Shown piece after piece: positions 8,583 through 24,086 of a DNA stretch of 64,000 nucleotides (its first letter is position 1; each line of letters begins with the position of its first letter). A program made the position numbers and the translations under genes. The stretch lies in assembly GCA_964464605.1 (NCBI GenBank), contig CAYXJN010000004.1, positions 248,001-312,000 of the forward strand, written 5' to 3'. The notes beneath the pieces were generated by a model. It was not told the origin of the DNA and did not search any database. It was given only the letters and a program-made list of their open reading frames with translations. Source of the stretch: an uncultured Ignavibacteriales bacterium. Lineage in GTDB: Bacteria > Zixibacteria > MSB-5A5 > GN15 > FEB-12.

Positions 8583-9365
8583 ATTATTACTGCCGCCGCC
8601 AATTGGCTCAAACGATTCGCCTTTGTCAGTCAAGACTTATTCTTTTTTGCCTGGCAGATGGTCAAACGGCTATTTACCGGTCCCTGGTATTTCAGCGAGA
8701 CAAAAGAGCAGTTGAATCTGATAGGGGTCGGTTCGGTATTTCTTGTCGGTCTGACAGGCATGTTCGCCGGGCAGGGGCTGGCGCTTGCCAATGCGAACGA
8801 GCTCGCTGATTTTGGCGCGAAAAACTATTTAGGCCGAATCATGGTCCTGTCGGTCGTGCGAGAACTTGGTCCTGTTCTGACGGGATTGATGGTCGCAGCG
8901 CGGGTTGCCTCCGGTATCACTGCCGAAATAGGGGCAATGAAGTCATCTGCGCAGCTTGATGCAATGACAGCATTCGGTATCGACCCTATCAGTAAAGTGG
9001 CTGTCCCCCGTTTATTGGCGCTTCTAATCGCCTTGCCCTGTTTAACGGTCATATGCGACTTTGTCGGGATTGTCGGCGGGTATATTATCGCCGAGTTTGT
9101 CGCGCATATGTCCACGACGATCTATTGGGCGAATGTTATCGAGAAACTCAACTTCGGTAATATTCTTATGGGAGTTATAAAGCCGCTTACTTTCTCGTTC
9201 ATCATCGCCTTCATTGCCTGTTATAAAGGATTCACCGCCCAAGGCGGTACCAAAGGAGTCGGGCGGGCCACGACCGAATCAGTTGTGCTGGCTTCAATTT
9301 GGGTTTTAGCGATTAATTTCATCATTACCAAAGTCGTCTTCTCGTACCTGAAGGGATATTTATGA
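8583..9365 (+). CDS. mlaE: MlaE/YrbE ABC permease (probable ATT start at 8583 or 8586; first ATG at 8658)
   Basis: VRELGPVLTGLMVAARVASGITAEIGAM, GVGRATT; frame stays open upstream of 8658 to an AAAGGA RBS. Confidence 0.88.
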   Translation: MITAAANWLKRFAFVSQDLFFFAWQMVKRLFTGPWYFSETKEQLNLIGVGSVFLVGLTGMFAGQGLALANANELADFGAKNYLGRIMVLSVVRELGPVLTGLMVAARVASGITAEIGAMKSSAQLDAMTAFGIDPISKVAVPRLLALLIALPCLTVICDFVGIVGGYIIAEFVAHMSTTIYWANVIEKLNFGNILMGVIKPLTFSFIIAFIACYKGFTAQGGTKGVGRATTESVVLASIWVLAINFIITKVVFSYLKGYL

Positions 9366-10144
9366 TCGAGTTTAAGAATGTCTCATTCGGATACGATCAA
9401 CGGCTGGTACTCAAGAATGTATCGTTTCGTATTGACGAGTCGGAGTCGGTGGTAGTGATGGGCTCCTCCGGATCAGGGAAATCGACGATTCTGCGCCTTA
9501 TTCTCGGACTGGAATGTCCGCAAGAAGGGGAGGTGCTGGTCGATGAGCAGGATATCTGCGTCGTGAGGGAAAAAGAGCGGCAGAATATTCGAAAAAAAAT
9601 CGGGATGGTGTTTCAGGACGGCGCATTGTTCGATTCGCTGACAGTCGGCGAAAATGTCGGCTACTACCTGATTGAAAATACGAAAATGACGTATGATCAA
9701 ATCGAAGGAAAAGTTCGGGCAATGCTCGGGTTTATCGGGCTTGATGCGGATGAAATTATTGACCGTCTGCCGGATCAACTCTCAGGCGGTATGCAGCGTC
9801 GCGTTGCAATTGCGCGGGCATTGCTCTCGACTGATCCGAAAATTATGCTGTACGATGAGCCGACCACCGGGCTCGACCCACAGTCGAGCGAGACAGTGCT
9901 GAATCTGATAACGAAGCTGCAGCAGGATAAATCGATTTCGAGTATTATCGTCACGCATGAAATTGCGGACGCTTTCGCTATCGTAAACCGGTTTATTCTT
10001 TTGCATAAAGGGGAAATAGTGTTCGACGGTACTTTGAATGAACTCCGCGACAGCACCGATGAGGTCGTGGTGGCATTTTTAGCGCCGTTTCGAGAATCGA
10101 TGGCGAATGTCGTCAACAAGCGCTTTATTACGGCATCGGCATGA
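9362..10144 (+). CDS. mlaF: MlaF/Mkl ABC ATP-binding protein
   Basis: GSSGSGKS, FQDGALFDSLTV, LSGGMQRRVAIARAL, YDEPTTGLDP. Confidence 0.92.
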   Translation: MIEFKNVSFGYDQRLVLKNVSFRIDESESVVVMGSSGSGKSTILRLILGLECPQEGEVLVDEQDICVVREKERQNIRKKIGMVFQDGALFDSLTVGENVGYYLIENTKMTYDQIEGKVRAMLGFIGLDADEIIDRLPDQLSGGMQRRVAIARALLSTDPKIMLYDEPTTGLDPQSSETVLNLITKLQQDKSISSIIVTHEIADAFAIVNRFILLHKGEIVFDGTLNELRDSTDEVVVAFLAPFRESMANVVNKRFITASA

Positions 10145-10166
10145 TGCATACTAACGGAGATACAGT

Positions 10167-11102
10167 ATGAAACGTTCTACCAACATAGGCTGGGGAAATA
10201 TCAAGGTCGGACTGCTGATCGTATTCGGTGTCGGCGTAATGTTTTGGGCATCATTGTCGGGCGGTGGAACATCACTGTTCGAGCAGAAAAAAACCTTCGT
10301 CTGCTATTTCAGCAATGTCGGCGGGATGGTCAAAGGGGCGCCGGTTTGGTTGTCCGGTGTTGAGGTTGGCAATGTCCAGTCGATTACTTTCGTGAATATA
10401 GATTCGGCTAAACAGGTGAAGTTAGTTTGCCGCGTTAAAGATGAAGTCTGGCCGCTCATGAATGAAAACACGCGGGTGCAGATAGGAACGATCGGATTTT
10501 TAGGGGATAAATATATCGAAATTATTCCCGGTATCGGCGGCACAGCTCCGCTTGCTGAAGGGGGAGAGGTTGCAGTCAAGCAAGCGCCGGATGCCTCCGC
10601 GGTATTCAGCGCAGCAGAAGGCGCGCTAAAACAGACCGGGTCAGTAGTTGATAATCTGGATTCGCTGTTAGAGCGGATGAACCGCGGAGAAGGTACATTC
10701 GGCCAGTTGGCGAAAAATGATGCCTTGTATCGTGAACTGACCGCTATGCTCACCAACCTTACGAAGCTGACGGCATCGCTCAATGCAAATCAGGAGCGTT
10801 TGTTTAGTTCTATTGAGCGTACTTCCAAATCGCTTGAGAATGTCAGCACCAAATTAGACAAGAATATGGGTACGGCGGGTCGCTTGATGAACGATCCCGC
10901 GTTATACGACAATCTTAATTCCTCGACTCAAAAACTCGATTCGCTGCTCGCTAAACTCAACGCCCCAACCGGTAATGTCGGCTTGTTAGTGAACGATTCC
11001 GCCGTGTATGTAGAAACGGTCAACCTGCTTGCCCGCTTGAACAGTCTGGTCGATGACATCCAAAAGAACCCGCGCAAGTATCTGAAGTTTTCGGTGTTTT
11101 GA
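10167..11102 (+). CDS. mlaD: MlaD/MCE family substrate-binding protein
   Basis: N-terminal TM, GAPVWLSGVEVGNV, GFLGDKYIEI, helical repeats, DIQKNPRKYL. Confidence 0.9.
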   Translation: MKRSTNIGWGNIKVGLLIVFGVGVMFWASLSGGGTSLFEQKKTFVCYFSNVGGMVKGAPVWLSGVEVGNVQSITFVNIDSAKQVKLVCRVKDEVWPLMNENTRVQIGTIGFLGDKYIEIIPGIGGTAPLAEGGEVAVKQAPDASAVFSAAEGALKQTGSVVDNLDSLLERMNRGEGTFGQLAKNDALYRELTAMLTNLTKLTASLNANQERLFSSIERTSKSLENVSTKLDKNMGTAGRLMNDPALYDNLNSSTQKLDSLLAKLNAPTGNVGLLVNDSAVYVETVNLLARLNSLVDDIQKNPRKYLKFSVF

Positions 11103-11120
11103 GTTCAGCATGAGATTGTT

Positions 11121-11912
11121 GTGATTTGCTGGCAAGCCTATATTGATGAAAGTGGAGTGCATGCGAATGCGCGATTTACTGTTGTTGCTGCCGCAATGGC
11201 TAAGCTTGACCTTTGGAATAAGGTAATTCCACAGTGGCAGGATGTTTTGAGGACGTATAAAATAGACTATTTCCATGCTACAGAAGTTAATAGACGCACA
11301 GGGCAATGTGACGGTTGGTCGCCAACATACAGAGATAATTTTGTTAAGTCGCTATTCGATGTTATAAGTGGTAAAGGTATAATATTTCACGGATATATAT
11401 TAGAAGCAGAAATATTTCATTCGACAGTATCGGAACTACAGATACACAATGTTAGTATCTATGATTATTTATTATGTAGCACAGTAAGTGATATCTCAGG
11501 AATTTGTGGTAGTATAAATACAAACGGGTGGAAATTTGATGGGCATAGACTAATAAAGGGTGAGCCACATGAAGTATCGATCTTTGTTGAAGATGGATGT
11601 GCTTTAACTACAACTCTCTATACCATTTGTAGCAGATTAGCATCGAAAGGTAAATTCCCCTTTGTGGAACGAATGAATTCTGGGAATAAAATGGTAGTAC
11701 CACTTCAAGTTGCTGATTTGCTTAGCTATGATATTTACAAAGAGTTCGAAACTAATCCGCGGACGTTTGAAAATATCAACAGATTTTCATTGAAGCGACT
11801 TGAACATGAAAATCGGCTCGTTGGGAAGGTCATGACTCGCGATTGGGTTCGAAAAGACTTGCCCAGTTTCATCCGATTTCTTCAAAAATGGGAAAACGAG
11901 TTAGAAAATTAA
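11121..11912 (+). CDS. DUF3800-like (RNase H fold) protein, AT-rich accessory gene
   Basis: AYIDESG, YFHATE and LQVADLLSY motifs; visibly more AT-rich than the flanks. Confidence 0.75.
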   Translation: MICWQAYIDESGVHANARFTVVAAAMAKLDLWNKVIPQWQDVLRTYKIDYFHATEVNRRTGQCDGWSPTYRDNFVKSLFDVISGKGIIFHGYILEAEIFHSTVSELQIHNVSIYDYLLCSTVSDISGICGSINTNGWKFDGHRLIKGEPHEVSIFVEDGCALTTTLYTICSRLASKGKFPFVERMNSGNKMVVPLQVADLLSYDIYKEFETNPRTFENINRFSLKRLEHENRLVGKVMTRDWVRKDLPSFIRFLQKWENELEN

Positions 11913-11946
11913 ATCCTAAGTCTTATTCCTTCAATAATAATGCCAC

Positions 11947-12027
11947 CTAAACCGGCATCATGGCCAGCATGAACTCAAGCAGTTTTGTCGTACCTAGTTT
12001 CCCTTTTTCGCCGACTTCCATCGGGGG
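11947..12027 (-). pseudogene. Displaced copy of the last 26 codons and stop of the DUF1998 helicase gene
   Basis: Translates PPMEVGEKGKLGTTKLLEFMLAMMPV*, identical to the C-terminus at 17688-17768, with synonymous differences only. Confidence 0.95.
11996..12024. repeat. 29-bp perfect direct repeat, copy 1 (candidate crossover/att core)
   Basis: AGTTTCCCTTTTTCGCCGACTTCCATCGG identical to 17737-17765. Confidence 0.9.
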
Positions 12028-12055
12028 GACACACCACATTCACACACGGTTTAGC

Positions 12056-14629
12056 CTACTCTCCGATTTGCAGCGTCAAAGCCATTGAGAATGTAGCTGG
12101 TGGTCCATACGTGTCCGGTACACTGCCGGCCGGGCTAACGCATCCGCCACTAAAGACGATCTCTATTGAGTGTTGGCCGGGGGCAAGCATGAGCGGTGAT
12201 CCTTCTTCATTCGGGAAATTCGGGTAACTCGTCGGCTGGCCGTCATGATTGAGGATATACATGCCGCCACCATCTAAATTGAAATAAATTCCACCTCCCC
12301 CTTCTCCGACAAAATTGAGGAATAAAGTGCCGGAAAGCGGCGTAGCATCAGCAACAGTAAAAGTAAATTGCGTTGAGGCAACTCCGACTGAACCGGCAAT
12401 ACAGGTAGCAGCTCCGTCTGCCGTTGCATCTACATTGGCATTGAATATCACATCAATCCGCCCTGGATTTGTCTGCGTAACGGTAGCGAGGCAGTTAGCG
12501 GAAGCACCGCCGCTGCCATTACCCGTTGGGCAAATGTAGAGGTCAGTAACTGACACACTCGCGCCGGTACTGCCATAGCCGAGATTGGTATGATTGTCGT
12601 TTTTTACCGTATCATCTACGATGGAATAACTTACCACGCTTGCGGTGGCATCTACCCGTCGGGTATTTAGCACAACTGAGCCGCTGCCGCCGCATCCGAA
12701 TAGCTCGCTTCGCGTGTTTTGTGCGCCTGAGTATAAACTGGAATAGGCATAATATTTCAAAATCTGCTCGTCAGTCAGTGCGTTTTCATCCAAATCGAGT
12801 TCTTCTCCGCAGACAACCACAGTGACTGTTGAATAGGCGGGTGGATTGTCGGCCGTGAGGTCAAACTTTGCGGTTGTCGAGCCGCCGGTGTTGCCGTCAC
12901 CGTTTAAGTCATACCGGGAATAGTCCAGTGCTTGTTGGTTTGCCGATGCCAATCGTGCAGGCATCAGGCCATACGCCGAGAGATAAGCCTCCAAATCATC
13001 TTCGTCGAATCTGTTCGTTTCACCTCCGACTTCAAGCAATGCTTTTCGGATAGGCGCGTTTGCCAGTCCGTGATCAAGCGATAACACCGCCTGATACGCA
13101 TTGACCGCACCGATTGTGTTGTCATAACAGTTCACAATAATTTCCTTTGCCTGATACGGAGTAAGATTGGCGTCTAAATTCATCAGGTATGCGGCTAATC
13201 CTGCTACTTGCGGGGTTGACTGCGATGTTCCCCCTTTGACCCGGAAGTTGTTCGTGCAGTCATCGTCCGGAATCACACAGGGTCCAAGTATTCCGTCGCC
13301 AACCACCATGCGAACATTGGCGCCGAGGTTTGAAAATGAAGTCCGGACGCCGTCGAGTCTGGAACAGCCGACTACGACGACATTCTGAAGCGGGGTGAAG
13401 ATATTTGTCGCGCTGGTTGTGTCGATAAACCGGAGGACATTATTGAAATCGATGCTGTCAGCATCGGAAAGATCTGCGGCGCTGATCCAATCCCATTCCG
13501 ATTCCATTAACGCAGCCATACAGAAAGGGCTGTTATAAACAGCTAAACTTCCTTCACCTGTTTCATCGCCGTCATTTCCTGCCGAGGTCGCATGCAGAAA
13601 CATCTGCTGGAATCCGTTTACCAAAGCGCGCCATTGCAGCGCATAGAGCATTCGCTCCAATGGACTGTATCGGTTAAAATAGGGGTCATTGTATCCCAAG
13701 CTGGTATTTACTATCGATCGGGTGGCACGGGGAATCGAATCTGCGGTCAATTTCAAAATTTCTCCCCACGATTCCCCGCCGGAATTCAGTGATTTTATTT
13801 CGAGTAGCGTCGTTTTTCCCGGGTGAATACCGGTGGTTCCAACGCTGTCGTACGTTGCCCCAAGGATACCCGCAACATGAAAGCCATGATTTCCTGAAGC
13901 ATTGCCATTGTGAATTGCAGTGTAGGCAACGTCGCCGGGAATTTGCAAAAACCGCTGACTTGGGATTTCGGGGCTTGGCGTCAGGCTGCCAAAATAGTCG
14001 GAAACGATAACCGACACTTTGTGCGGCGTTGCTTCAGCGAAGGTTTTCAAATTCCATGCAGCCGGCATCAGGCATTTTTTTAAATGTTCGATATTGGTTG
14101 CGGCCGGTCCGGTGGGAACAATGTTGAGCGATGCTTCATTCGCCGATTCTTCCGGGCTGGGTACCGGAGTACGACCCGGAAACGCAAAAAGAAACGCGCC
14201 GTTGTCACGAAGCCTTTGGCAAATACCGGCAATCTGTGCTGAGTCAGATGCGGCGGGGATGAGCAGAGTCACGAACAGACTGGTATCTTCCATATAACAA
14301 ATGAGCGCCTGTAGAGAATCGAGTATCGCATTCACCTTGCCGATAGTCGCGGCCGGGTCCAGTACAGCGGAAATTTTATTCGCTAACAATCCTGTCGAGT
14401 CTACGAGCATGACCGATGGGGCATTGTATGAAAAGAATTCACTGGTCGCGTGTGCGGCGTTCGCGTTTTCATCTCCGGTCAATAACACGCCCGGCTCACT
14501 CGGATTACCCGGGCCGCCCGGCTCGGTGCTCTTGTCGCCGCCACAGGCAAGAAAGAGTGAAACCAGTACCGCCAATACGCCTGCCGTTGCGAACAATTTG
14601 TAGAGAAATGTTTTGTCATCAACGCGCAT
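12056..14629 (-). CDS. S8 (subtilisin-like) serine peptidase lipoprotein, paralog A
   Basis: CAGGAG RBS; lipobox FLAC; triad VIVSD, NHGFHVAG, GTSQSTPQVAG; oxyanion SAGN; YDLNGDG Ca-binding/dockerin-like loop. Confidence 0.88.
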   Translation of the reverse strand: MRVDDKTFLYKLFATAGVLAVLVSLFLACGGDKSTEPGGPGNPSEPGVLLTGDENANAAHATSEFFSYNAPSVMLVDSTGLLANKISAVLDPAATIGKVNAILDSLQALICYMEDTSLFVTLLIPAASDSAQIAGICQRLRDNGAFLFAFPGRTPVPSPEESANEASLNIVPTGPAATNIEHLKKCLMPAAWNLKTFAEATPHKVSVIVSDYFGSLTPSPEIPSQRFLQIPGDVAYTAIHNGNASGNHGFHVAGILGATYDSVGTTGIHPGKTTLLEIKSLNSGGESWGEILKLTADSIPRATRSIVNTSLGYNDPYFNRYSPLERMLYALQWRALVNGFQQMFLHATSAGNDGDETGEGSLAVYNSPFCMAALMESEWDWISAADLSDADSIDFNNVLRFIDTTSATNIFTPLQNVVVVGCSRLDGVRTSFSNLGANVRMVVGDGILGPCVIPDDDCTNNFRVKGGTSQSTPQVAGLAAYLMNLDANLTPYQAKEIIVNCYDNTIGAVNAYQAVLSLDHGLANAPIRKALLEVGGETNRFDEDDLEAYLSAYGLMPARLASANQQALDYSRYDLNGDGNTGGSTTAKFDLTADNPPAYSTVTVVVCGEELDLDENALTDEQILKYYAYSSLYSGAQNTRSELFGCGGSGSVVLNTRRVDATASVVSYSIVDDTVKNDNHTNLGYGSTGASVSVTDLYICPTGNGSGGASANCLATVTQTNPGRIDVIFNANVDATADGAATCIAGSVGVASTQFTFTVADATPLSGTLFLNFVGEGGGGIYFNLDGGGMYILNHDGQPTSYPNFPNEEGSPLMLAPGQHSIEIVFSGGCVSPAGSVPDTYGPPATFSMALTLQIGE

Positions 14630-14824
14630 TGAGAACTCCTGCTCTTGTGAGGAAATAAACATCCAATGGAAAAATATACACAATCCGCGTGGCTATCCGC
14701 TACCCCAAAATTCTGCGGTGCGATCGAGGAAATTTACGAAGATCCCACAGCAAGCTGTGAGCGACCAGTTAAGGTGACATGGACACCGTCAAGAAAAGAA
14801 TTGCCGTGGCGACGCCACTTACAC
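14526..14824. repeat. 299-bp direct repeat, copy A (S8 signal peptide + upstream region + helicase stop)
   Basis: Aligns without gaps to 17395-17693 (offset 2869); 3 mismatches seen, first 242 bp identical. Confidence 0.95.
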
Positions 14825-14872
14825 TGCCTTCATCGCCAGCATGAGCTCAAACAGCTTCGTCGTGTCTTGTTT
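14819..14872 (-). pseudogene. Degenerate copy of the helicase 3' end between the two S8 genes
   Basis: Translates KQDTTKLFELMLAMKAV* versus true KLGTTKLLEFMLAMMPV*. Confidence 0.85.
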
Positions 14873-17498
14873 ACTTCTTGCTTTGAGTAGTTACTACCGC
14901 CGGTTTTCGGGTGGGAGTAACTGGCGCAAAGGTCAAGCCGCCGCTAATGTCAAATGTGCCGTTCCAATTGGCGCCACCCTGTATGTACAAGGTGTAATTT
15001 CCGGGTACTAACTGACCATCTTCATTGACTCCCGCTGTTTGTCCGGAGGTAAAAAAGGAATCAATAATTGCGCCGGAGGGTCCCTCGAAACCGACATAGC
15101 CATATGCTGTTTCTACCGTTAACGAAGGGTCAGTTTTAACAAAGGTGCCATTGAACTGAAGGGTGTAATAGACTGCAGCATTGACGACCGTGAACTGAAC
15201 CTCGAAATCCGCAGCGGCGTCGGCATTCATCGAACAGAAGTTGCCCTGATTGTTCGCGCTTCCGGAACCGCTAAACGTAATAGCCGTCAGCGTATCACCA
15301 TTGGAACGTACCAGTGATGTGTTCAGGCTTGCATTTGCGTCCATTGTGTTGCTGGGATCAAGCTGGCAGGTGAGGCTGGCTTCGGTGTTGCCGAAGAACG
15401 TGCCGAAATCATACGGCGGAATGTACGGGGTTGAATCTGCATCCCGAACGCGAACATTGTCGTTCGGGTCGAAGGGATTGCCGTGATCAAGTACGCTGGC
15501 AACGACATAATCGGTGCGTTTCGTAACAATCACGACTCCTTCAAAACTTCCGCCGCCACATTCCAAAATCTGGTCACGCTCGGCAGGGTTGCCGTCATAT
15601 AAGGATGAGTTGGCGTAGTATTTCAAAATCTCTTCATCGGTCAAAGAGTTTTCGTTTAGGCTGACTTCTTCACCGCAAAAAGTCGCGGTGATGGTTGTAT
15701 AAGCAGGTGGATTATCGACTGTCAGGTCGAACTTCGCTCGTGTGCTGCCGCCGGTGTAACCGTCGCCGTTTAAGTCATAGCGAGAATAATCGAGTGCCTG
15801 CGGGTTGGTGGATAAAGATCGCGCTGGCATGAGACCGAATACGGAAAGGTAGACTTCCAAGTCGGTTTCGTCGAACAACCCATCTGCTCCTCCGACATCC
15901 AACAACGCTTTGCGAATTGGAGCGTTACCGAGACCGTCATCAAGCGCAAGCACTGCCTGGTACGCGTTGACCACACCAACGCTGTTATCGTAACTATTCT
16001 TGATAATTTCTTTCGCTTGGAAGGGAGCCAGATTCGCATCCAGATTCATCAAATATGCCGCCAATCCGGCGATTTGCGGAGTCGCCTGGGATGTTCCATT
16101 CATCGTAACGAAATTGCTGCTGCAATCTCCGTCGGCAATCACACACGGCCCTAAAATTCCCTCACCGATCATCCGTACATCAGCGCCGAGATTCGAAAAT
16201 TCGGATCTTGTTCCGTTCGGTTTTGAACTGCCGACTACGAGAACATTCAAAAGCGGGGTGAAAATATTTGTCGCGCTGGTAGTGTCGATAAACTTCAGCA
16301 CGCTGTTGTAATTGATACTATCCGCGCTGTTTAGATCAGCTGCGGCAATCCAATCCCATTCCGATTCCATTTGCGCAGCCATATTGAATGGGCTGCCATA
16401 CACCGACAGACTCCCTTCATTGTTGGTTTCGTCGGCTTGATTTCCAGCTGCGGTAGCATGAAGGAACATCAGTTGAAAGCTGTTTACCAGCGCCCGCCAC
16501 TGAAGGGCGTACAACATACGCTCGAGCGGAGAGTAAAATTGGAAATTTGCGTCGTTGTACCCAAGGCTGGTATTGAGAATTGATTTTGTATTTTTGGGGA
16601 TTGAATCGGCCGTGATTTGCAGCAGTCTACCCCACTCTTCACCGCCTATGTTGAGTGAACGGAGCTCCAGTAGGCTGGTATTTCCGGGATGGATTCCGGT
16701 GGTTCCGGTCGAGTCATAGACTGCACCAAGTGCGCCGGCAACGTTGAACCCATGGTTTCCTGAAGCGCTGCCGTTGCTACTGAGCAGAACATATGCAGCG
16801 TCACCGGGGATTTGGATAAAACGCTGACTCGGAATCTCCGGGTTTGGTGTCAGGCTGCCGTAAACATCCGAAACAATCACGGGGACTTTGTGCGGTGTTG
16901 CTTCCGCATGCTCCTTTAGGTTCCATGCGGCCGGCATCAGACATTTCTTGAGATGCGAGATATTGTTGCTCGCAGGTCCTCCGGGAACAATGCTGAGAGC
17001 TGGATCAGAGGTGACGTCCTTCGAAATCATCATCGGTGTATGACCGGGAAAGGCAAAAAGAAAGAGGTCGCTTGACCGCAGCTGTTCACAAATGGCTGCG
17101 ATTTGTGCAGAGTCAGATACTGCCGGAATCAGGAGTGTCATGAACAGGCTGGTATCCTGCATATTAATAATTCGAGCCTGCAGCGAATCCAACAGCGCGT
17201 TGACCTGACTGACTGTCGCACTCGGTGACAGTATGGCGTAAATTTTGTTGGCCAGTAATCCGGTTGTATTGTCAAGAAGTACCGATGGGGCATTATAAGA
17301 AAAATAAGCAGTCGTTACGAATGCAGCATTGGCTGTGTCTGCACCGGTTAGCAGTACGCCGGGTGTTACCGGGTTACCCGGACCTTGCGGTTCAGTGCTC
17401 TTGTCGCCGCCACAGGCAAGAAAGAGTGAAACCAGTACCGCCAATACGCCTGCCGTTGCGAACAATTTGTAGAGAAATGTTTTGTCATCAACGCGCAT
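14871..17498 (-). CDS. S8 (subtilisin-like) serine peptidase lipoprotein, paralog B
   Basis: Same signal peptide as paralog A; VIVSD, NHGFNVAG, AAGN, GTSQATPQIAG; YDLNGDG loop; different C-terminal domain. Confidence 0.88.
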   Translation of the reverse strand: MRVDDKTFLYKLFATAGVLAVLVSLFLACGGDKSTEPQGPGNPVTPGVLLTGADTANAAFVTTAYFSYNAPSVLLDNTTGLLANKIYAILSPSATVSQVNALLDSLQARIINMQDTSLFMTLLIPAVSDSAQIAAICEQLRSSDLFLFAFPGHTPMMISKDVTSDPALSIVPGGPASNNISHLKKCLMPAAWNLKEHAEATPHKVPVIVSDVYGSLTPNPEIPSQRFIQIPGDAAYVLLSSNGSASGNHGFNVAGALGAVYDSTGTTGIHPGNTSLLELRSLNIGGEEWGRLLQITADSIPKNTKSILNTSLGYNDANFQFYSPLERMLYALQWRALVNSFQLMFLHATAAGNQADETNNEGSLSVYGSPFNMAAQMESEWDWIAAADLNSADSINYNSVLKFIDTTSATNIFTPLLNVLVVGSSKPNGTRSEFSNLGADVRMIGEGILGPCVIADGDCSSNFVTMNGTSQATPQIAGLAAYLMNLDANLAPFQAKEIIKNSYDNSVGVVNAYQAVLALDDGLGNAPIRKALLDVGGADGLFDETDLEVYLSVFGLMPARSLSTNPQALDYSRYDLNGDGYTGGSTRAKFDLTVDNPPAYTTITATFCGEEVSLNENSLTDEEILKYYANSSLYDGNPAERDQILECGGGSFEGVVIVTKRTDYVVASVLDHGNPFDPNDNVRVRDADSTPYIPPYDFGTFFGNTEASLTCQLDPSNTMDANASLNTSLVRSNGDTLTAITFSGSGSANNQGNFCSMNADAAADFEVQFTVVNAAVYYTLQFNGTFVKTDPSLTVETAYGYVGFEGPSGAIIDSFFTSGQTAGVNEDGQLVPGNYTLYIQGGANWNGTFDISGGLTFAPVTPTRKPAVVTTQSKK

Positions 17499-17693
17499 TG
17501 AGAACTCCTGCTCTTGTGAGGAAATAAACATCCAATGGAAAAATATACACAATCCGCGTGGCTATCCGCTACCCCAAAATTCTGCGGTGCGATCGAGGAA
17601 ATTTACGAAGATCCCACAGCAAGCTGTGAGCGACCAATTAAGGTGACATGGACACCGTGAAGAAAAGAATTGCGGTGGCGACGCCACTTACAC
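17395..17693. repeat. 299-bp direct repeat, copy B
   Basis: Matches 14526-14824. Confidence 0.95.
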
Positions 17694-19964
17694 CGGCATC
17701 ATCGCCAGCATAAACTCAAGGAGCTTGGTTGTGCCGAGTTTCCCTTTTTCGCCGACTTCCATCGGTGGACCGACACAGGAGGGACAGCCCATCACACACG
17801 GACAGGTGCGGACATGTTGCAGGCAGGCTTCAAAAAGGGATTCTGATTCTGTAAACAGTTTCCGCGACAAGCCAACTCCCCCCGGAATATTTTCATAAAT
17901 GTAGACCGTCGGTCGTTCGGTAAACGGGGCGCGAACCTGCGAAATCGAACGTAAATCCCGCTGATCGCACATCACCCAGAGGGGAGCAATAGTACCCAAA
18001 AGATTGGCCAGTCCTCTCAGGGCTCCGCCGAACTGGTCACCGGATAAATTGAGCTGGTCTTTGATATCAAGCGGGAAGGCATACCAAAATGCTTCGGTGT
18101 GCATCTCTATTTCAGGTAATGTCAATTGCCCGGAACCGACATTTTCATGCGTGTGGAATTTGATTTTCTTAAATAGTACGGTTGTGTTCGTAAGCGATAT
18201 CTCACCGTTAGCCAATATGGCATCCCCCAGTTCCCGCTGGTCATTAACAGCCAGTACTTTCAAATCCGCTTTTGTTTCGGCATCGGTGTAGTAATCGACA
18301 TTCGTTTCTTTTACGTATGCTTTTTTCCCGTCCCAATCGAGGTTTGTTACCTGGTACTGTTCGGCGCCGTGCAGATAGATAGCTTCCGGATGCAGGAAAA
18401 TCGGTGCGGAGAAATAGTCGACCTCGCCAATAACTTTGTAATCATCCGTTTCATTTAGAATAACGAAGTTCTCCGCTGAGGCAGAACGTAATGATACTCC
18501 CTGCGCAGGATATATCTCCGATGACCAGTGGAATCGTTCACCGCTTTTCCGAACGATTTTAGACTCGGCTAAAAATTCGAGTATTTCCTCGGTGCCGTTC
18601 GCTCCGTCATATTCATTTGATTCAAACGGCAATTCAAACGCGGCGCACTTGAGATGGTTGGTGCGGATAATCAGGTTGTCCGGATCGATAATGCCTGATT
18701 CCGGGGTGCGCTCGAAAATATATTTCGGTTCGGTCATCAGGAATTGATTAATCGGCGAGGAATTCGCAATCATGATGGTCAACGATGTTGTATTCCGCCG
18801 CCCGGCGCGTCCGGCCTGCTGCCAGAGTGATGCAATCGAACCGGGGTAGCCGAGTATGATACTGACATCCAATCGCCCGATATCGATACCTAATTCCAGC
18901 GCATTGGTCGAAACGACGCCGGTTATTGAACCGTTACGCAATCCTTGTTCAATACGTCGCCGTTCACCGGGCAAATAGCCGCCACGATACCCGGCGATTT
19001 CGATACCGTTGCCAAAATCCCCTTTGAGCTCCCGCTGCAAATAGGTGAGCAGGACTTCGACGTTTAGCCGGGAATGGGCGAAGACAATCGTCTGGACTTT
19101 GTTGCGCAAAAAGAGCGCCGCGAGTTTGCTTGCTTCATTGATCGCCGATTTGCGAATACCAAGCTCACGATTAACCACCGGCGGATTGTATAGCAGAAAA
19201 TGTTTTTCCCCCGACGGCGCTCCATTTTCGGTTACTGCCGCAACCGGCTGACCGATGATACGGGATGCGAGTTCATCCGGATTCGCAATCGTCGCCGAAC
19301 AGCAGATAAACTGCGGATTCGAGCCGTAAAACTGGCAGATGCGCTGCAGCCGCTTGATGACATTCGCCAAGTGGGACCCGAAGATACCGCGGTAGTGATG
19401 TACTTCATCGATCACGATGTACTTCAGATTTTCAAACAGCTTAATCCATTTGGTGTGGTGCGGCAAAATCCCGGCGTGGAGCATATCCGGATTGGTAATT
19501 ACGATATGTCCGGCGGAGCGGATCAATCTGCGCGCGGTTTGTGGAGTATCCCCATCGAAGGTGTAGGTTTTAATATCAACACCGAGCGTTTGTACTAACT
19601 CATACAACTCGCTAAGCTGATCCTGCGAAAGCGCTTTGGTGGGAAAGAGGTACAATGCGCGACTATCGGGAGATTTTAAAATCTTATCCAGTACCGGAAG
19701 ATTGTAGCAGAGTGTTTTCCCGGATGCCGTCGGGGTTACGATAACGGCATTTTTGTTTTCGTTGATCGTTTCAATCGCCGCGGCCTGATGCGTGTAAAGC
19801 TGTTTGATCCCTCGTTTTGCGAGTGCTTCGATGAGTCGTCGATCAAGAACGGCGGGGAAGGGAGCGTATTGGGGGGCTTTGGCGGAAAATGATTTCCAGC
19901 TTGAGATATTTCCCTTGTGGTCGCCGTCGGAGCGGAGGAGGTCAATAACCTGTTCGAGATTCAT
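17688..19964 (-). CDS. DEAD/DEAH-box helicase with DUF1998 (MrfA/YprA/Hrq1-like)
   Basis: TPTASGKT, PTKALSQDQ, DEVH, SATIAN, TNALELGIDIG, QQAGRAGR, C-terminal CPCVMGCPSC zinc site. Confidence 0.92.
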   Translation of the reverse strand: MNLEQVIDLLRSDGDHKGNISSWKSFSAKAPQYAPFPAVLDRRLIEALAKRGIKQLYTHQAAAIETINENKNAVIVTPTASGKTLCYNLPVLDKILKSPDSRALYLFPTKALSQDQLSELYELVQTLGVDIKTYTFDGDTPQTARRLIRSAGHIVITNPDMLHAGILPHHTKWIKLFENLKYIVIDEVHHYRGIFGSHLANVIKRLQRICQFYGSNPQFICCSATIANPDELASRIIGQPVAAVTENGAPSGEKHFLLYNPPVVNRELGIRKSAINEASKLAALFLRNKVQTIVFAHSRLNVEVLLTYLQRELKGDFGNGIEIAGYRGGYLPGERRRIEQGLRNGSITGVVSTNALELGIDIGRLDVSIILGYPGSIASLWQQAGRAGRRNTTSLTIMIANSSPINQFLMTEPKYIFERTPESGIIDPDNLIIRTNHLKCAAFELPFESNEYDGANGTEEILEFLAESKIVRKSGERFHWSSEIYPAQGVSLRSASAENFVILNETDDYKVIGEVDYFSAPIFLHPEAIYLHGAEQYQVTNLDWDGKKAYVKETNVDYYTDAETKADLKVLAVNDQRELGDAILANGEISLTNTTVLFKKIKFHTHENVGSGQLTLPEIEMHTEAFWYAFPLDIKDQLNLSGDQFGGALRGLANLLGTIAPLWVMCDQRDLRSISQVRAPFTERPTVYIYENIPGGVGLSRKLFTESESLFEACLQHVRTCPCVMGCPSCVGPPMEVGEKGKLGTTKLLEFMLAMMPV
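17737..17765. repeat. 29-bp perfect direct repeat, copy 2, inside the helicase 3' end
   Basis: Identical to 11996-12024. Confidence 0.9.
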
Positions 19965-19973
19965 GCTACACAG

Positions 19974-20516
19974 CTATGCCGCGCCGGTAAGGGTACGTTT
20001 ACAGATATCGCAGAATTTCATCCCTTTGCTGTCAATATCCAGCATGATCTGGCTGAAATAATTTACGCACCGGGGATTGCGGCATTCATTGATGTCGAAC
20101 AGATGGGCTAACTGATGGAGCGCTTCTTTATGCATGCGCGGGAATACCTTTGCTTCATCCTCAGGCAGGCCATAAAACTCCTGACGCAGCCGATAGAGCG
20201 AAACCACAGCCGTACCGGATAGTGCGTCAGAATACCCAAGAACGTAGTTTTCGTCAGGAAGGTAGAGGTCCTCTTCGCAGACGGCTATCACTTTTTCACG
20301 GCTATTCGCTTTTATTCGCTCCAGTTTAGCCAAAAGGATAACGGCGTAGTACTGGTTCCGGACGACATTGAAGGCCTCCGGCGGCATTTTCATCCCTTTC
20401 AGGATATCCACCGAGCGGGCAAAAATAGGCCCGATTTCGGATGCCAGCCGGTTGACCAGCACGAAATCAACATCACCCATCGGAACGACAACTATCTTAG
20501 ACTTCAACAAACTCAT
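19974..20516 (-). CDS. Archaemetzincin (M54)-like protein, probably catalytically inactive
   Basis: RNQYYA, DLYLPDENYVLG, AVVSLYRL, KEALHQLAHLFDINECRNPRCV, FCDIC. Confidence 0.8.
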   Translation of the reverse strand: MSLLKSKIVVVPMGDVDFVLVNRLASEIGPIFARSVDILKGMKMPPEAFNVVRNQYYAVILLAKLERIKANSREKVIAVCEEDLYLPDENYVLGYSDALSGTAVVSLYRLRQEFYGLPEDEAKVFPRMHKEALHQLAHLFDINECRNPRCVNYFSQIMLDIDSKGMKFCDICKRTLTGAA

Positions 20517-20543
20517 GCTCAAAGGTTACGGTTTTGCCGTGGG

Positions 20544-20735
20544 TTATCCGGCTGAAAAGAAACGGGACTTACTGCCGGTGGGGGAAACTTTCACTTCCAC
20601 TTTTCTGGCGCATTTCGGGCACCAGCCGACAAAGGCGGTCTCTTTTTTGTTCAAATAGATACGGGAGTACACCGAGCAACAATCAAAATGGACACCCAAA
20701 TAGGGGCGTTCTGCGGGGCGGGAACTCTCACTCAT
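20544..20735 (-). CDS. Small Cys-rich (zinc-ribbon-like) hypothetical protein
   Basis: RPYLGVHFDCCSVYSRIY...GWCPKCAR; fills the operon gap on the same strand. Confidence 0.65.
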   Translation of the reverse strand: MSESSRPAERPYLGVHFDCCSVYSRIYLNKKETAFVGWCPKCARKVEVKVSPTGSKSRFFSAG

Positions 20736-20799
20736 ACCACAGGGCAATAAACAGAATTTTGATGGGAAAAGGCAAGTACGGCGATGCCGTTTTCATGGG

Positions 20800-21459
20800 T
20801 TAGGTTTGCGTCAGAATAGCGGGAGCGTTGGAAGTACCGATACGGTCGGCGCCGGCTTCGATCATGCTTAGGCAGTCAGCCAATGTCCGAATCCCGCCCG
20901 CCGCTTTGATTTTGATATTTCCCTGTGTAACCGCTGAAACTGCTTTTACCTGTTCAACGGTAGCAGGGCCGAAAAAGCCGGTGCCGGTTTTAACAAACTC
21001 CGCGCCGCTGCTCATCACTGCTTTGGTTGCTTCGAAGATTTGTGTCGGTGTGAGAACAGAGGCTTCAATAATGACCTTCAGCAAAATCGGAGAGGGGAGA
21101 CGGCTACGGAATGCAGTTAGTTCATCTTCGACGATCGCAAATTCATCGGCGCAGAGCCGACCGATGGATGCAACCAAATCAACTTCCTGAGCACCTTCAT
21201 CGACTGCCTTCATCGCTTCACTCAGCGCGACATTGCCGCGGCTTGCTCCCAACGGAAAATTGCAGGTGGTGACGAGTTTGACGGATGAATCCCGCAGATA
21301 GGATTTGGCTATACCAATCCAAATCGGATTAACAACTGCTGAGTAGGTATTGAATGCAATCGCCTCTTCACAGAGTTTTTTGATATCAGCCTGAGTGGTC
21401 GTTGGCTTCAACGCGGAATGTTCTAAGCGAGTATGAAGAGTGGATATGATTGAAGACAT
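20800..21459 (-). CDS. deoC: Deoxyribose-phosphate aldolase
   Basis: NFPLGA, GAQEVDLV, LKVIIE, FVKTGTGF, IKAAGGIR, GADRIGTS. Confidence 0.93.
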   Translation of the reverse strand: MSSIISTLHTRLEHSALKPTTTQADIKKLCEEAIAFNTYSAVVNPIWIGIAKSYLRDSSVKLVTTCNFPLGASRGNVALSEAMKAVDEGAQEVDLVASIGRLCADEFAIVEDELTAFRSRLPSPILLKVIIEASVLTPTQIFEATKAVMSSGAEFVKTGTGFFGPATVEQVKAVSAVTQGNIKIKAAGGIRTLADCLSMIEAGADRIGTSNAPAILTQT

Positions 21460-21461
21460 GA

Positions 21462-22637
21462 TTAGCGTGAAATTTCGTTCAGAAAACTGGTGCCGGGACA
21501 TTGGTATGACACGCCGAGATATTCGGCAACGGTTGCGGCGACATCAGCAAATGTGCTTCTCGTTCCCAGATTGACGCCCGGTTTGAGTTGTTTGCCGTAG
21601 ACTAACAACGGAACATGCTCACGCGTGTGATCGGTTGAGTATTTCAAGGTCGGGTCGCAGCCGTGGTCGGCAGTGATAATCAGAATATCTTCATCCCGCA
21701 ATTTTATCAGCAGTTTAGTGACGCCGTGATCAAACTCTTCAAGTGCTTTGGCGAAATTGACTTCATCGTTTCGGTGTCCCCAATTCTGATCGAAATCGAC
21801 GAGGTTGGTAAATATCAGCGATGCTGCAGTATCCGTTGTCGTCTGTGCAATCAGTGCAGCGATTCCTTCGATGTTATTTGCTGTCTTGATTGCTTTGCTT
21901 ATCCCTTTGCCGTCGAAGAGGTCATAAATCTTCCCGATCGACAGGGGCGCCGCCCCACTCTTTTGCAAAGCGTCGAGAATAGTGGGAGATGGCGGCTGAA
22001 CGGAAAAGTCTTTTCGTCCCGATGTGCGGGTAAAATTGCCGGGTGTGCCGATGAACGGACGGGCAATCACGCGGCCGACATGGTATTTGCCTATCAACAT
22101 CTCCCGCGCGATCTGACAGATTTCATAAAGCTGTTTGAGTGGAATGATGTCATCATGCGCCGCTAACTGAAATACCGAGTCGGCTGAGGTGTACAGAATG
22201 ATTTTGCCGGTCTTGATATGCTCTTCACCGAGCCGTTCGATAATCTCCGTTCCGCTGGCAGCAACGTTGCCGATTGTTTGTATTCCGGCCGCTTTTTCGA
22301 ACTGCTCAACGATATCGCGGGGGAACCCATTCGGAAAAACGGGGAAAGGCTGCTCTAATACTACGCCTGCAATTTCCCAGTGGCCGGTAGTGGAATCTTT
22401 GCCGGGAGAACGTTCGATCATTTTCCCATAGCTTCCGCTTGGCGCTGATTCTGGGGGAACACCTGCAATCGGCGCGATATTCCCTAATCCTAATTTCTGA
22501 CAGGCGGGCATGCACAAACCACCGACTGCTTTGGCGACATTCGGAATGGTGCTGGCGCCTTGATCGTTGTAGGCGGCGGCATCGGGAAGTTCACCGATTC
22601 CGCAGGCATCGATTACAACGAGAACAACACGGCGCAT
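21462..22637 (-). CDS. deoB: Phosphopentomutase
   Basis: VIDACGIG, GKDSTTGHWE, YTSADSVFQ, RVIARPF, NLVDFD, ITADHGCDP, DHTREHVP. Confidence 0.95.
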   Translation of the reverse strand: MRRVVLVVIDACGIGELPDAAAYNDQGASTIPNVAKAVGGLCMPACQKLGLGNIAPIAGVPPESAPSGSYGKMIERSPGKDSTTGHWEIAGVVLEQPFPVFPNGFPRDIVEQFEKAAGIQTIGNVAASGTEIIERLGEEHIKTGKIILYTSADSVFQLAAHDDIIPLKQLYEICQIAREMLIGKYHVGRVIARPFIGTPGNFTRTSGRKDFSVQPPSPTILDALQKSGAAPLSIGKIYDLFDGKGISKAIKTANNIEGIAALIAQTTTDTAASLIFTNLVDFDQNWGHRNDEVNFAKALEEFDHGVTKLLIKLRDEDILIITADHGCDPTLKYSTDHTREHVPLLVYGKQLKPGVNLGTRSTFADVAATVAEYLGVSYQCPGTSFLNEISR

Positions 22638-22646
22638 GATAGGGAA

Positions 22647-23522
22647 TTATTCGGTGGGAGGTACAGCTTGCAGATTATCAGTGAGCAGGCGGACATTGAT
22701 ATCCATATTGACTGAAACGGTGTATGAGACATAGCTGTCATTCACTAATTTTTTCCGTTCGCCGGCGATAGTCCAGTGTTCCTGTTGTTTGACTAATATT
22801 CCTTCCTTCGGAGCAAAGTAGAGGGTGCCGTTAGTAGTAATATGGTCGACTCCGCTTCGTTTAACGCTGTCGGTCGGACTTTCGATTACCGGAATAATCA
22901 TGTTTCCGTTAAAGGTAATGACCGCGCAGTTGTAGATGCCTTCCTGCATAAATCCGGTTACCTGAAATGTGGTGGAGGCATCGTATTGCTTATCGCCGAC
23001 GGTAATCTTCGATGTTTGTGTCCAGTTACTCCCTTTGGAGAGTCTGTTCGGCGGAAAAACCGGTGTGCCTTGGTCGACTACGCTTTGCGTGTAGGCGCTT
23101 TGGGTGACATTTTGTTCATCGGCAAACTCGAGATTGTTGATCCGCCCGTTGGTCATCATCCAGACCGAGAGTCGTTCTTCGGTTACCGTCGAATCGACTT
23201 TGGATGAATCATCCGCATTTTGTTTAGTGACTGTCCAGGTATGTCGTTCGATCAGCTCTGCGGTGGTGTCGTTGACCATGTTCCGGCAGGTCGTTTCGAC
23301 AATCATGCGGTATTCACCGCTGCCGGAATCGATAATCGAATCCTGCATGCGAACCTGATAGTTGCGGTTAGTGATATGCTCGTAGGTCTGCGTTTTTCCG
23401 GGGGCAAAGCGGTAGCGGAGCATAAAATCCTGCTCCCCTCCGGTGCAGCCGTAAAAAGCAGCCAGAATGCCGGCGGTGAGTAGTGAGGTGAGGAAAAATT
23501 TTGTCATCTTTGGCGGTGTCAT
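22647..23522 (-). CDS. Hypothetical lipoprotein (beta-rich, LRYRF start of mature domain)
   Basis: Lipobox FYGC; same strand and tightly spaced behind the anti-sigma gene. Confidence 0.7.
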   Translation of the reverse strand: MTPPKMTKFFLTSLLTAGILAAFYGCTGGEQDFMLRYRFAPGKTQTYEHITNRNYQVRMQDSIIDSGSGEYRMIVETTCRNMVNDTTAELIERHTWTVTKQNADDSSKVDSTVTEERLSVWMMTNGRINNLEFADEQNVTQSAYTQSVVDQGTPVFPPNRLSKGSNWTQTSKITVGDKQYDASTTFQVTGFMQEGIYNCAVITFNGNMIIPVIESPTDSVKRSGVDHITTNGTLYFAPKEGILVKQQEHWTIAGERKKLVNDSYVSYTVSVNMDINVRLLTDNLQAVPPTE

Positions 23523-23528
23523 ATCCTG

Positions 23529-24086
23529 TTATATCGGTCGGCGCGGTACATCCCGCAACCCGGCCATTCGCCCCGGGCTTCCTGGTAGACTCAACTGCAG
23601 AATCGCTTCTGCCCAATGCTGCTGGTCATCCTCGGTAAAGACCGGTTCCGGAAGGGATGGTAACACATCCTGTAGCGGGGCAACAGCGAAAACTGGGCTG
23701 TTATTTTGGGTCGTTCGGGCGATACTTTGCCGGTCATCAGTGTTCAAACTGATCGCCGTAATGAATAAAAAGAGGGCAAAGGCGAATGAAACAAGCGAAC
23801 GAACAAAAATCCGTTTGTCTTCCGGTGTCGCTTTACCCGCCGGTTCTACGGTAATGCGATCGATTGTTTTGGCGCGGACAAGTGAGTCGACTTCCTGCCA
23901 ATAGTCGTCGTTAGGTATGGGGGATTTACTTTGCCCCAAAACTTCTTTCAAACGCCTGAGTTCATCGTATTCGATACGACACTCGGCACATGCAGCTATG
24001 TTCTCCTGAATCTGTGCTGCTTCGACGGGTGTGAGTTCGCCGTCGATATATGCTTCCAGGAGATTGGTGGGGTGGCGGTGGGTCAT
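23529..24086 (-). CDS. Transmembrane zf-HC2/ZAS-type anti-sigma factor
   Basis: TAGGAG RBS; LLEAYIDGEL...ENIAACAEC; one TM helix; follows the ECF sigma gene. Confidence 0.85.
   Translation of the reverse strand: MTHRHPTNLLEAYIDGELTPVEAAQIQENIAACAECRIEYDELRRLKEVLGQSKSPIPNDDYWQEVDSLVRAKTIDRITVEPAGKATPEDKRIFVRSLVSFAFALFLFITAISLNTDDRQSIARTTQNNSPVFAVAPLQDVLPSLPEPVFTEDDQQHWAEAILQLSLPGSPGRMAGLRDVPRRPI

Follow-up and report, generated by a model that had tools for sequence, protein, structure and literature searches.

How do two protease genes come to lie in tandem behind a helicase gene, each followed by a further copy of the helicase's own 3′ end, in an array without a recombinase gene? The question is raised by a 64-kb stretch of DNA (the window, whose coordinates are used throughout, on the minus strand unless stated) from contig CAYXJN010000004.1 of an uncultured Ignavibacteriales bacterium, which has a genome of 2.8 Mb in 18 contigs and belongs to a poorly studied uncultured phylum. 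Behind an intact YprA/MrfA-type (DUF1998) superfamily 2 (SF2) helicase gene stand two units of 2,869 bp, in each of which a helicase 3′ end is followed by a 189-nt leader and a gene for an S8 lipoprotein protease, and the minus strand reads helicase, leader, S8-B, decayed helicase tail, leader again, S8-A and a third helicase tail. An earlier description, made from the sequence alone (the sequence-only reading), had given these parts in this order, and all of them lie where it placed them. We favour, with a probability of roughly 55%, the explanation that the array is a small genomic islet without a recombinase, which ordinary recombination with an anchor in the helicase gene has both made and moved; it looks like the footprint of gene import by such recombination, and not like a new kind of mobile element.

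Three copies of a helicase end

The helicase gene (17688–19964) encodes 758 aa and has Pfam matches to DEAD (7e-36), Helicase_C, WHD_HRQ1 and a complete MZB/DUF1998 domain (residues 653–731, MZB positions 2–80 of 80). The combination of an SF2 core with a C-terminal Zn-binding MZB/DUF1998 domain places the protein in the YprA/MrfA family, for the description of which we draw on sections of a preprint (bioRxiv 2025.09.15.676423). Besides the window's own genome, an ortholog is present in 40 of 40 relatives, and the last 110 aa of the protein are matched in 132 of 160 genomes of the order; the helicase is a core gene of the order.

Its working 3′ end, tail 1 (17683–17801; the last ~38 codons, the stop codon and 5 nt), was aligned to two further copies. 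Tail 2 (14802–14904, from ungapped and gapped alignment) lies between the proteases and is decayed, and tail 3 lies beyond S8-A in two parts of different character: an old, decayed 5′ stub derived from the helicase (12025–12049, by gapped alignment to helicase positions 17801–17766) and a pristine displaced helicase end of 26 codons plus stop (11942–12024, by codon comparison, the first codon straddling 12025–12027). A repeat search delimited the copies as 17683–17768, 14814–14899 (65% identity) and 11942–12027 (87%), spaced 2869 and 2872 nt apart, with five more repeat pairs spaced 2863–2869 nt; gapped alignment lengthened the distal copy, 12049–11942 corresponding to helicase 17801–17683. 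When the unit was searched by blastn against the entire 2.8-Mb genome, the pair of tails scored E = 6e-23, and no further copy of tail or leader was found. A self-blastn of the same genome for short direct repeats 0.3–20 kb apart returned 41 pairs, among which the helicase tails were the only copies of a gene end.

The comparison of tails 1 and 3 carries most of our argument. Both encode the same 26 residues and stop, although 11 of the 27 codons counted from 12027 differ: all 11 differences are synonymous, none is nonsynonymous and there is no indel. Synonymous changes make up 23% of the single substitutions in this stretch, and under equal-rate substitution a result of 11 out of 11 has P ~8e-8. 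The two tails are thus the ends of two helicase alleles, each of which evolved under selection, and their presence at one locus implies at least one recombination between lineages that crossed over in the tail.

Where this crossover fell is suggested by the tails themselves. Codon differences are unevenly spread, one in the first 10 codons against 10 in the next 17 (Fisher p = 0.018), and the longest perfect stretch between tails 1 and 3 is a 29-nt block (17737–17765, identical to 11996–12024). Directly upstream of this block in tail 3 lies the stub, with four indels (+1, −3, −6 and −3 nt) in ~25 nt and a frameshift; that a decayed stub and an intact end meet at the 29-nt block indicates that tail 3 is chimeric. 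Judged by its position, the block is the likely crossover site, and tail 3 would be an old decayed stub that travelled with S8-A, joined to an end that was until recently selected as a real gene end.

Tail 2 has fared differently. Compared with tail 1, 15 of its 27 codons carry nonsynonymous differences, stop codons interrupt the helicase frame, and gapped alignment reveals several indels, including a 15-nt insertion; the last ~11 codons of S8-B run into it. The middle tail is, in other words, far more decayed than the distal one. Had units been accreted stepwise beside the helicase, one would expect the distal tail to be the oldest pseudogene, whereas tail 3 is pristine, and this order of decay contradicts simple stepwise stacking; it argues that the two-protease block was assembled before it met the present distal tail. 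The sequence-only reading had held that DNA with a replacement tail recombined into the helicase 3′ end, with the tail it displaced left behind at the far border, and that this happened repeatedly, stacking protease variants. Its first half is borne out by the synonymous differences and by parallel tail-flanked insertions in three relatives (G032, G028 and G218, see below). Repeated entry runs against the order of decay, and the second unit is equally well explained by unequal crossing-over, the S8 family standing in tandem at other loci in relatives.

Two proteases behind copies of one leader

Each protease gene is preceded by the same 189-nt leader, which in the first copy (17499–17687) extends from the helicase stop codon to the S8-B ATG and contains an AGGAG ribosome-binding site; the second copy (14630–14818) precedes S8-A. 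The leaders lie within a 299-nt repeat (17395–17693 and 14526–14824) that comprises the last 2 helicase codons, the leader and the first 34 S8 codons, and differs at 3 positions, with a perfect run of 242 nt. Both this repeat and the perfect 29-nt core had been singled out in the sequence-only reading, correctly in each case. No difference separates the copies over the leader and the first 30 S8 codons (dS = 0 over 30 codons), and the near-identity ends sharply on the gene side and gradually on the tail side, where the identity of tail 2 declines from 97% next to the leader to 42%. A scan for sigma-70-type promoters found none on the coding strand of the leader, and no credible Rfam family was found in 11500–18200.

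A perfect repeat of 242 nt, longer than the k-mers that assemblers usually employ, may also mislead an assembly. The source is apparently similar to a metagenome-assembled genome (MAG), with its 18 contigs, and pairing the repeats the other way would give a helicase–S8-A arrangement plus a closed 2,869-nt S8-B loop. The repeat could then have been misresolved, or two strains joined, with one S8 gene per chromosome and the S8-B unit a separate 2.87-kb molecule or the property of another strain. We consider this very unlikely. The sequence that leads from S8-B across the decayed tail to the leader is unique and has three variants of its own, which implies that S8-B is followed by the leader in real molecules; a switch of strains at a shared block of 29 nt is, by the same reasoning about k-mer sizes, not to be expected; the completeness and contamination of the genome are rated at 100% and 0%; the helicase–mlaD synteny is the conserved one; and analogous orphan tails occur in independent assemblies.

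S8-B (14871–17498, 875 aa from its ATG; Peptidase_S8, 5.5e-21) and S8-A (12056–14629, 857 aa) are lipoprotein-type subtilases and belong to PF00082 (Peptidase_S8), with scores of 73.3 and 75.6 bits where the curated cut-off is 21.8. In an alignment of 12 sequences D211, H249, N353 and S470 (S8-B numbering) are invariant; from the GNHG and GTS motifs, D211, H249 and S470 are the putative catalytic residues and N353 the putative oxyanion residue. Both proteins start MRVDDK...LFLAC, which resembles a lipoprotein signal peptide with a lipobox. We infer that the proteases are lipidated and active and that both are expressed, probably from their identical leaders, as subtilases that are anchored in the membrane and differ in their C-terminal modules. 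Their bodies are 70–73% identical, with synonymous sites saturated (pS 0.72), and a ratio of nonsynonymous to synonymous divergence (dN/dS) of ~0.1 indicates that both genes have been kept by selection, whereas the C-terminal ~200 aa are unrelated (25%).

The locus thus holds three layers of age: the protease bodies are the oldest, the helicase tails come between, and the leader with the first 30 codons is the youngest. A bounded tract of 299 nt set inside an old divergence is the pattern of a tandem duplication with gene conversion, and the identity of leader and signal peptide in front of anciently diverged bodies indicates recent gene conversion or crossover.

The C-terminal modules have no Pfam family. 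Those of S8-A (12056–12730) and S8-B (14871–15590) both score 0.88–0.90 against the same unnamed 191-aa cluster of a protein atlas, which we take as a lead only; the two modules may share a fold. Among 5.8 billion proteins there were two close S8 homologs only. One (P0002) joins an A-like body, 86–87% identical to S8-A, to a B-type C-terminal module, 68% identical to that of S8-B, and the other (P0013) is A-type throughout; that these proteins mix the two types of module as mosaics implies that modules recombine within the family. P0002 is encoded on a contig of 2,854 bp, a size near that of the 2,869-nt unit, which hints at repeat-bounded units in that organism too; the contig encoding P0013 measures 1,717 bp. 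A search with S8-B against genome contigs, one with the S8 alignment against metagenome contigs and one of viral contigs gave no match, and a degenerate pattern for the last 8 helicase codons found 5 loci, which we regard as chance matches, none having the helicase or S8 by tblastn.

A purely local history also has to be weighed, in which a single S8 gene following the helicase underwent an ancient in-place duplication and the copies diverged, with the leader kept identical by gene conversion and nothing imported. Within their own genome, neither S8-A nor S8-B has a closer full-length relative than the other, and the saturated body dS with dN/dS ~0.1 suits an old duplication, as does the decayed tail 2 if it marks an old internal junction; P0002 has the S8-B end reading into the tail, which dates the S8-B/tail 2 junction as old. 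The S8 family, although patchy (15 of 160 genomes of the order at E ≤ 1e-60), often forms tandem arrays at other loci, such as the five matches on a single contig of G069 and the two adjacent copies in G022; within the G069 run of paralogs (L076, G069:C11:50000-69000) stretches near the gene 5′ ends reach 75–81% identity. Even so we find this history quite unlikely, since a single duplication yields two tails and not three, and an old distal pseudo-tail should have decayed like tail 2 instead of retaining 11 of 11 synonymous differences and no indel. Nor does this S8 lie behind the helicase in any of the 28 relatives compared, all of them from other genera (the closest has a helicase 78% identical), and the tail-flanked anatomy recurs elsewhere around unrelated cargo.

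Orphan tails in relatives and the question of a recombinase

On its far side the array meets a plus-strand DUF3800-like open reading frame (ORF; 11121–11912), a weak match (Pfam 4.6e-4, at the cut-off) that lies outside the array and is convergent on tail 3, and then mlaD, mlaF and mlaE (8658–11102 on the plus strand, with mlaD at 10167–11102), which are convergent on the helicase. The interval between helicase and mlaD had been proposed as the place to compare across genomes; the array does lie within it, but mlaD is not the direct neighbour, as the DUF3800-like ORF intervenes. This ORF is not at the same position in the 28 relatives (tblastn), and GC content falls to 0.444 at 10001–12000, the region of the ORF, against ~0.50 elsewhere; the array itself shows no compositional anomaly. 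On the other side, an M54 (archaemetzincin-like) peptidase gene (19974–20522) ends 10 nt before the start of the helicase gene, and the two genes are likewise adjacent in G074 (L100).

In 16 of the 28 relatives the helicase is convergent on mlaD, across a gap of 19 nt to 8.1 kb (19, 82 and 95 nt in three of them) whose contents vary by genus. None of the 28 has this S8 in the gap. We searched for orphan tails with each relative's own tail (26 of 28 loci valid; L038 and L039 were not), with the window's tail across the order (160 genomes, 132 matched) and in a phylum sample (257 genomes, 217 matched). With the own-tail and order searches, G032 and G028 proved to have orphan tails behind the helicase, and the phylum sample added G218 and an ambiguous case, G208.

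G032, of another family, has the anatomy of the window with a different cargo. A hicA/hicB pair stands between helicase and remnant (L056, G032:C28: hicA toxin 352–567 and probable hicB 568–912, both minus strand; orphan helicase tail 1073–1204), and the remnant again consists of a decayed stub before a core, here of 34 codons with 12 synonymous and no nonsynonymous differences. Beyond it, at 1246–2043, lies a Swt1-like HEPN gene. The cases of G028, G218 and G072 are older. In G028 the helicase is followed by a copper P-type ATPase and then a decayed remnant, and the ATPase is likewise behind the helicase in its congener G025; in L054 (G028:C14, 414–2744) the ATPase gene is split into two ORFs at ~1340, by an apparent frameshift or assembly error. 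In G218 a 1365-aa PKD/FG-GAP protein with a sorting domain of the type IX secretion system (T9SS) follows the helicase, and the remnant, with 9 synonymous and 4 nonsynonymous differences, lies on an adjoining contig (orphan tail L093 1160–1241), the two contigs (L094, the end of C20, and L093, the start of C60) overlapping by 55 identical nt. In the single-contig relative G072 neither end of the helicase was found, yet an orphan tail of 43 codons is kept beside mlaD (L099, G072:C1, 8208–8336); a haem-binding-domain gene reads toward it. A second helicase end of 256 nt on another contig of G208 is ambiguous, may reflect a mixture of strains and is not counted as firm. In several MAGs a contig ends within the helicase tail or shortly past it, but by a rough estimate such breaks are about as many as expected, and we draw no inference from them.

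Could a dedicated enzyme have built these arrangements? A recombinase acting in trans, either Xer-type or the integrase of another element, might insert circular units of tail, leader and S8 gene at a defined core within the helicase 3′ end and excise them there, as with cis-mobilizable elements (CIMEs), integrative mobile elements exploiting Xer (IMEX) and integron cassettes, and variants would then stack singly. Several observations are of the kind such a system would leave: direct repeats containing the 3′ end of the target gene border each unit, the 29-nt core is perfect, the homology of tails 1 and 3 stops 5 nt past the stop codon within a 13-nt palindrome present at tails 1 and 2, the unit is close in size to the P0002 contig, and the helicase site recurs in several families. 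The genome moreover encodes five tyrosine recombinases, the nearest an Xer-like gene in the window itself (1001–1933), ~10 kb from the array. At 318–1933, a ComF-like gene (double zinc ribbon and phosphoribosyltransferase domain) overlaps the start of this gene, which encodes 310 aa.

We nevertheless consider such a system unlikely. The array, as the sequence-only reading had noted, has no recombinase gene, and each unit consists of the leader and one S8 ORF, a single-gene cargo with no decayed integration or transfer genes. Among 88 ORFs in the helicase-downstream regions of 25 relatives (46 + 42; 18 short or clearly flanking ORFs of 101 were excluded and 5 from L054 and L056 added) there was no integrase or resolvase and one IS200-like gene (G033, L053), and hence no integrase-bearing element at this site. 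Remnant lengths differ by lineage (~82, 108, 110 and 120–135 nt, with 256 nt in the ambiguous G208), which argues that there is no fixed cut site, and the sequence past the helicase stop codon is not conserved among relatives. The core of tail 2 is decayed, and a putative second entry has therefore not used it recently; the order of decay is the opposite of that left by stepwise accretion. None of the 7 inverted-repeat pairs in 9000–24000 lies at a unit border, and there is no attC-like hairpin, the 13-nt palindrome past the stop codon being all that is found there. Neither intI nor attI accompanies the array, the neighbours of which are the helicase, the M54 peptidase gene, the DUF3800-like ORF and mlaD. 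IMEX would call for the chromosomal dif site near the terminus; there is no switch of GC skew in the 64-kb window to suggest one, although no search with a dif model was made.

Ordinary recombination anchored in the helicase gene, the explanation we favour, could proceed as follows. DNA from a related lineage, bearing a helicase 3′ end and whatever follows it, would pair with the resident helicase, and on the far side the join would lie at the resident tail or shortly before it; the helicase would be completed by the incoming tail, and the resident tail would be displaced downstream as an orphan. Cargo that lies between helicase sequence and a tail stub could then be copied by a plain double crossover into any relative with the helicase, and a right-hand exchange within the conserved block at the start of the tail would give a chimeric distal tail, as here and in G032. 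For the window we infer a history in which the two-protease block, with its decayed middle tail and old distal stub, pre-existed and acquired its present distal tail by crossing over within the identical 29-nt block. Before that, the second unit would have been gained, either through another displacement or when flanking tails or leaders crossed over unequally. The 299-nt leader and signal-peptide segment would since have been homogenised by gene conversion, or would itself have been a crossover site. The ComF-like competence gene and the native-like GC content of the S8 genes count in favour of this explanation.

Several points weigh against it. A ComF-like gene alone is no proof of natural transformation. 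The very first duplication of a tail presumably needs an illegitimate or Campbell-type event, a decayed stub would make a poor homology arm, and crossover in as few as 29 identical nt should be rare. Orphan tails in 5–6 lineages among the 217 genomes with a helicase tail are suggestive, though they may not be specific to the helicase gene: our controls (the N-terminal 110 aa of the helicase and the C-terminal 110 aa of the neighbouring metalloenzyme gene) were confounded by paralogs and gave no base rate. Further repeats were observed outside the window. On G000:C8 three intergenic repeats of ~55 nt (144129–144179, 151202–151259 and 159029–159086; 84–88% identity, 7–8 kb apart) each stand behind a same-strand run of genes and are not tRNAs (aragorn). 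On G000:C2 a pair of 65-nt direct repeats (2520–2584 and 3158–3222, 92% identity) surrounds one 192-aa ORF, and a separate 206-nt pair (130453–130658 and 131028–131233, 93% identity) falls where no ORF reaches 100 aa.

The idea of ordinary recombination can be carried further, to a proposal that we put forward with considerable doubt as a whole. The last ~100 nt of the YprA-type helicase gene might serve as a portable homology arm throughout the phylum, and any gene that comes to lie behind the arm and is bracketed by a tail stub would be a recombinase-free cassette, which RecA could pop out as a circle to be passed on and re-inserted. In this genus the shared promoter and signal-peptide leader would offer a second handle, by which variants of a lipoprotein protease with swappable C-terminal modules might be stacked, swapped and co-expressed, and the arrangement would be a counterpart of the integron that runs on homologous recombination.

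If the import explanation holds, a duplicated gene end of ~100 nt would suffice to make neighbouring genes transferable from one related genome to another without the enzyme of a mobile element, and import would have a simple signature that can be searched for, namely a working gene end and an orphan copy of it that differ at synonymous sites only. If, on the other hand, the array were only an old duplication or a slip of assembly, it would be ordinary.

Comparison with known systems

The sequence-only reading knew of no described system like this one, which is too strong a statement, as two close analogues exist: the displacement arrays of Rhs, contact-dependent inhibition (CDI) and T6SS (type VI secretion system) loci, and the accretion of CIMEs. 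What we consider new here is the synonymous-only divergence of the tails, the same anatomy with other cargo in other families, the lack of a recombinase at the site in the 25 relatives scanned, the order of decay, identical leaders on ancient protease bodies, and tandem arrays of the S8 family at other loci that have no helicase tails. A full-text literature search, judged by titles and not exhaustive, found no account of insertion at the end of a DUF1998 gene.

The nearest comparison in gene content is with the tandem S8 arrays of G069 and G022, which are likewise head-to-tail runs of S8 paralogs with local stretches of higher identity; their spacers, however, are ~35–60 nt long, and they have neither helicase tails nor a duplicated leader. 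Integron cassettes are similar in being single-gene units that enter at one site, where newcomers move the older ones back, but intI, attI and attC are missing here and each unit has its own leader and ribosome-binding site. The minimal mobile elements of Neisseria are alternative genes between conserved flanks that are exchanged by transformation and homologous recombination and have no mobility genes of their own. They fit the variable helicase–mlaD interval, but are not known to leave a duplicated gene end, whereas here one of the homology arms is a duplicated tail.

Among elements that do integrate site-specifically, tycheposons, according to the sections of their description used here (bioRxiv 10.1101/2020.12.28.424599), resemble the array in repeated integration at the 3′ end of one gene, in partial gene copies that mark older events and in niche-adaptive cargo; they differ in having their own tyrosine or serine recombinase, often replication genes, tRNA targets and a size of 10–20 kb. 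CIMEs and their accretion come closer, with tandem stacking at the 3′ end of a target gene that is left intact (PMC5704250, in the parts consulted), and the array has the corresponding direct repeats, with three tails 2869 and 2872 nt apart that include the target 3′ end on both sides. According to the same source, CIMEs are decayed integrative and conjugative elements (ICEs) or integrative mobilizable elements (IMEs), accreted by the site-specific integrase of an incoming element. At the helicase, in contrast, we found neither an integrase-bearing element in relatives nor decayed integration or transfer genes in the unit, and the lengths of the repeats vary.

C-terminal displacement, as described for Rhs, CDI and T6SS loci, is the closest described process. 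For these arrays the portions of Kirchberger et al. (2017; PMC5361080) on which we rely propose homology-facilitated illegitimate recombination, followed by block transfer through homologous recombination, with no integrase known. Homology to the conserved upstream part of a gene gives incoming DNA its anchor, the resident 3′ end is pushed downstream and kept as an orphan, and the arrays that result become longer and later move from strain to strain as blocks; in the window, tails 2 and 3 are likewise orphan 3′ fragments, each with a piece of the upstream region, downstream of an intact gene. The same source describes the displaced ends as variable toxin tips with immunity genes, under conflict-driven selection, whereas here the tail is invariant in protein and restores a housekeeping-type helicase, and the payload in the window and in relatives is an unrelated gene (a protease, hicAB, a copper ATPase or a surface protein). 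If our explanation is right, the C-terminal displacement logic of toxin loci would reach a housekeeping-type gene and ordinary accessory cargo.

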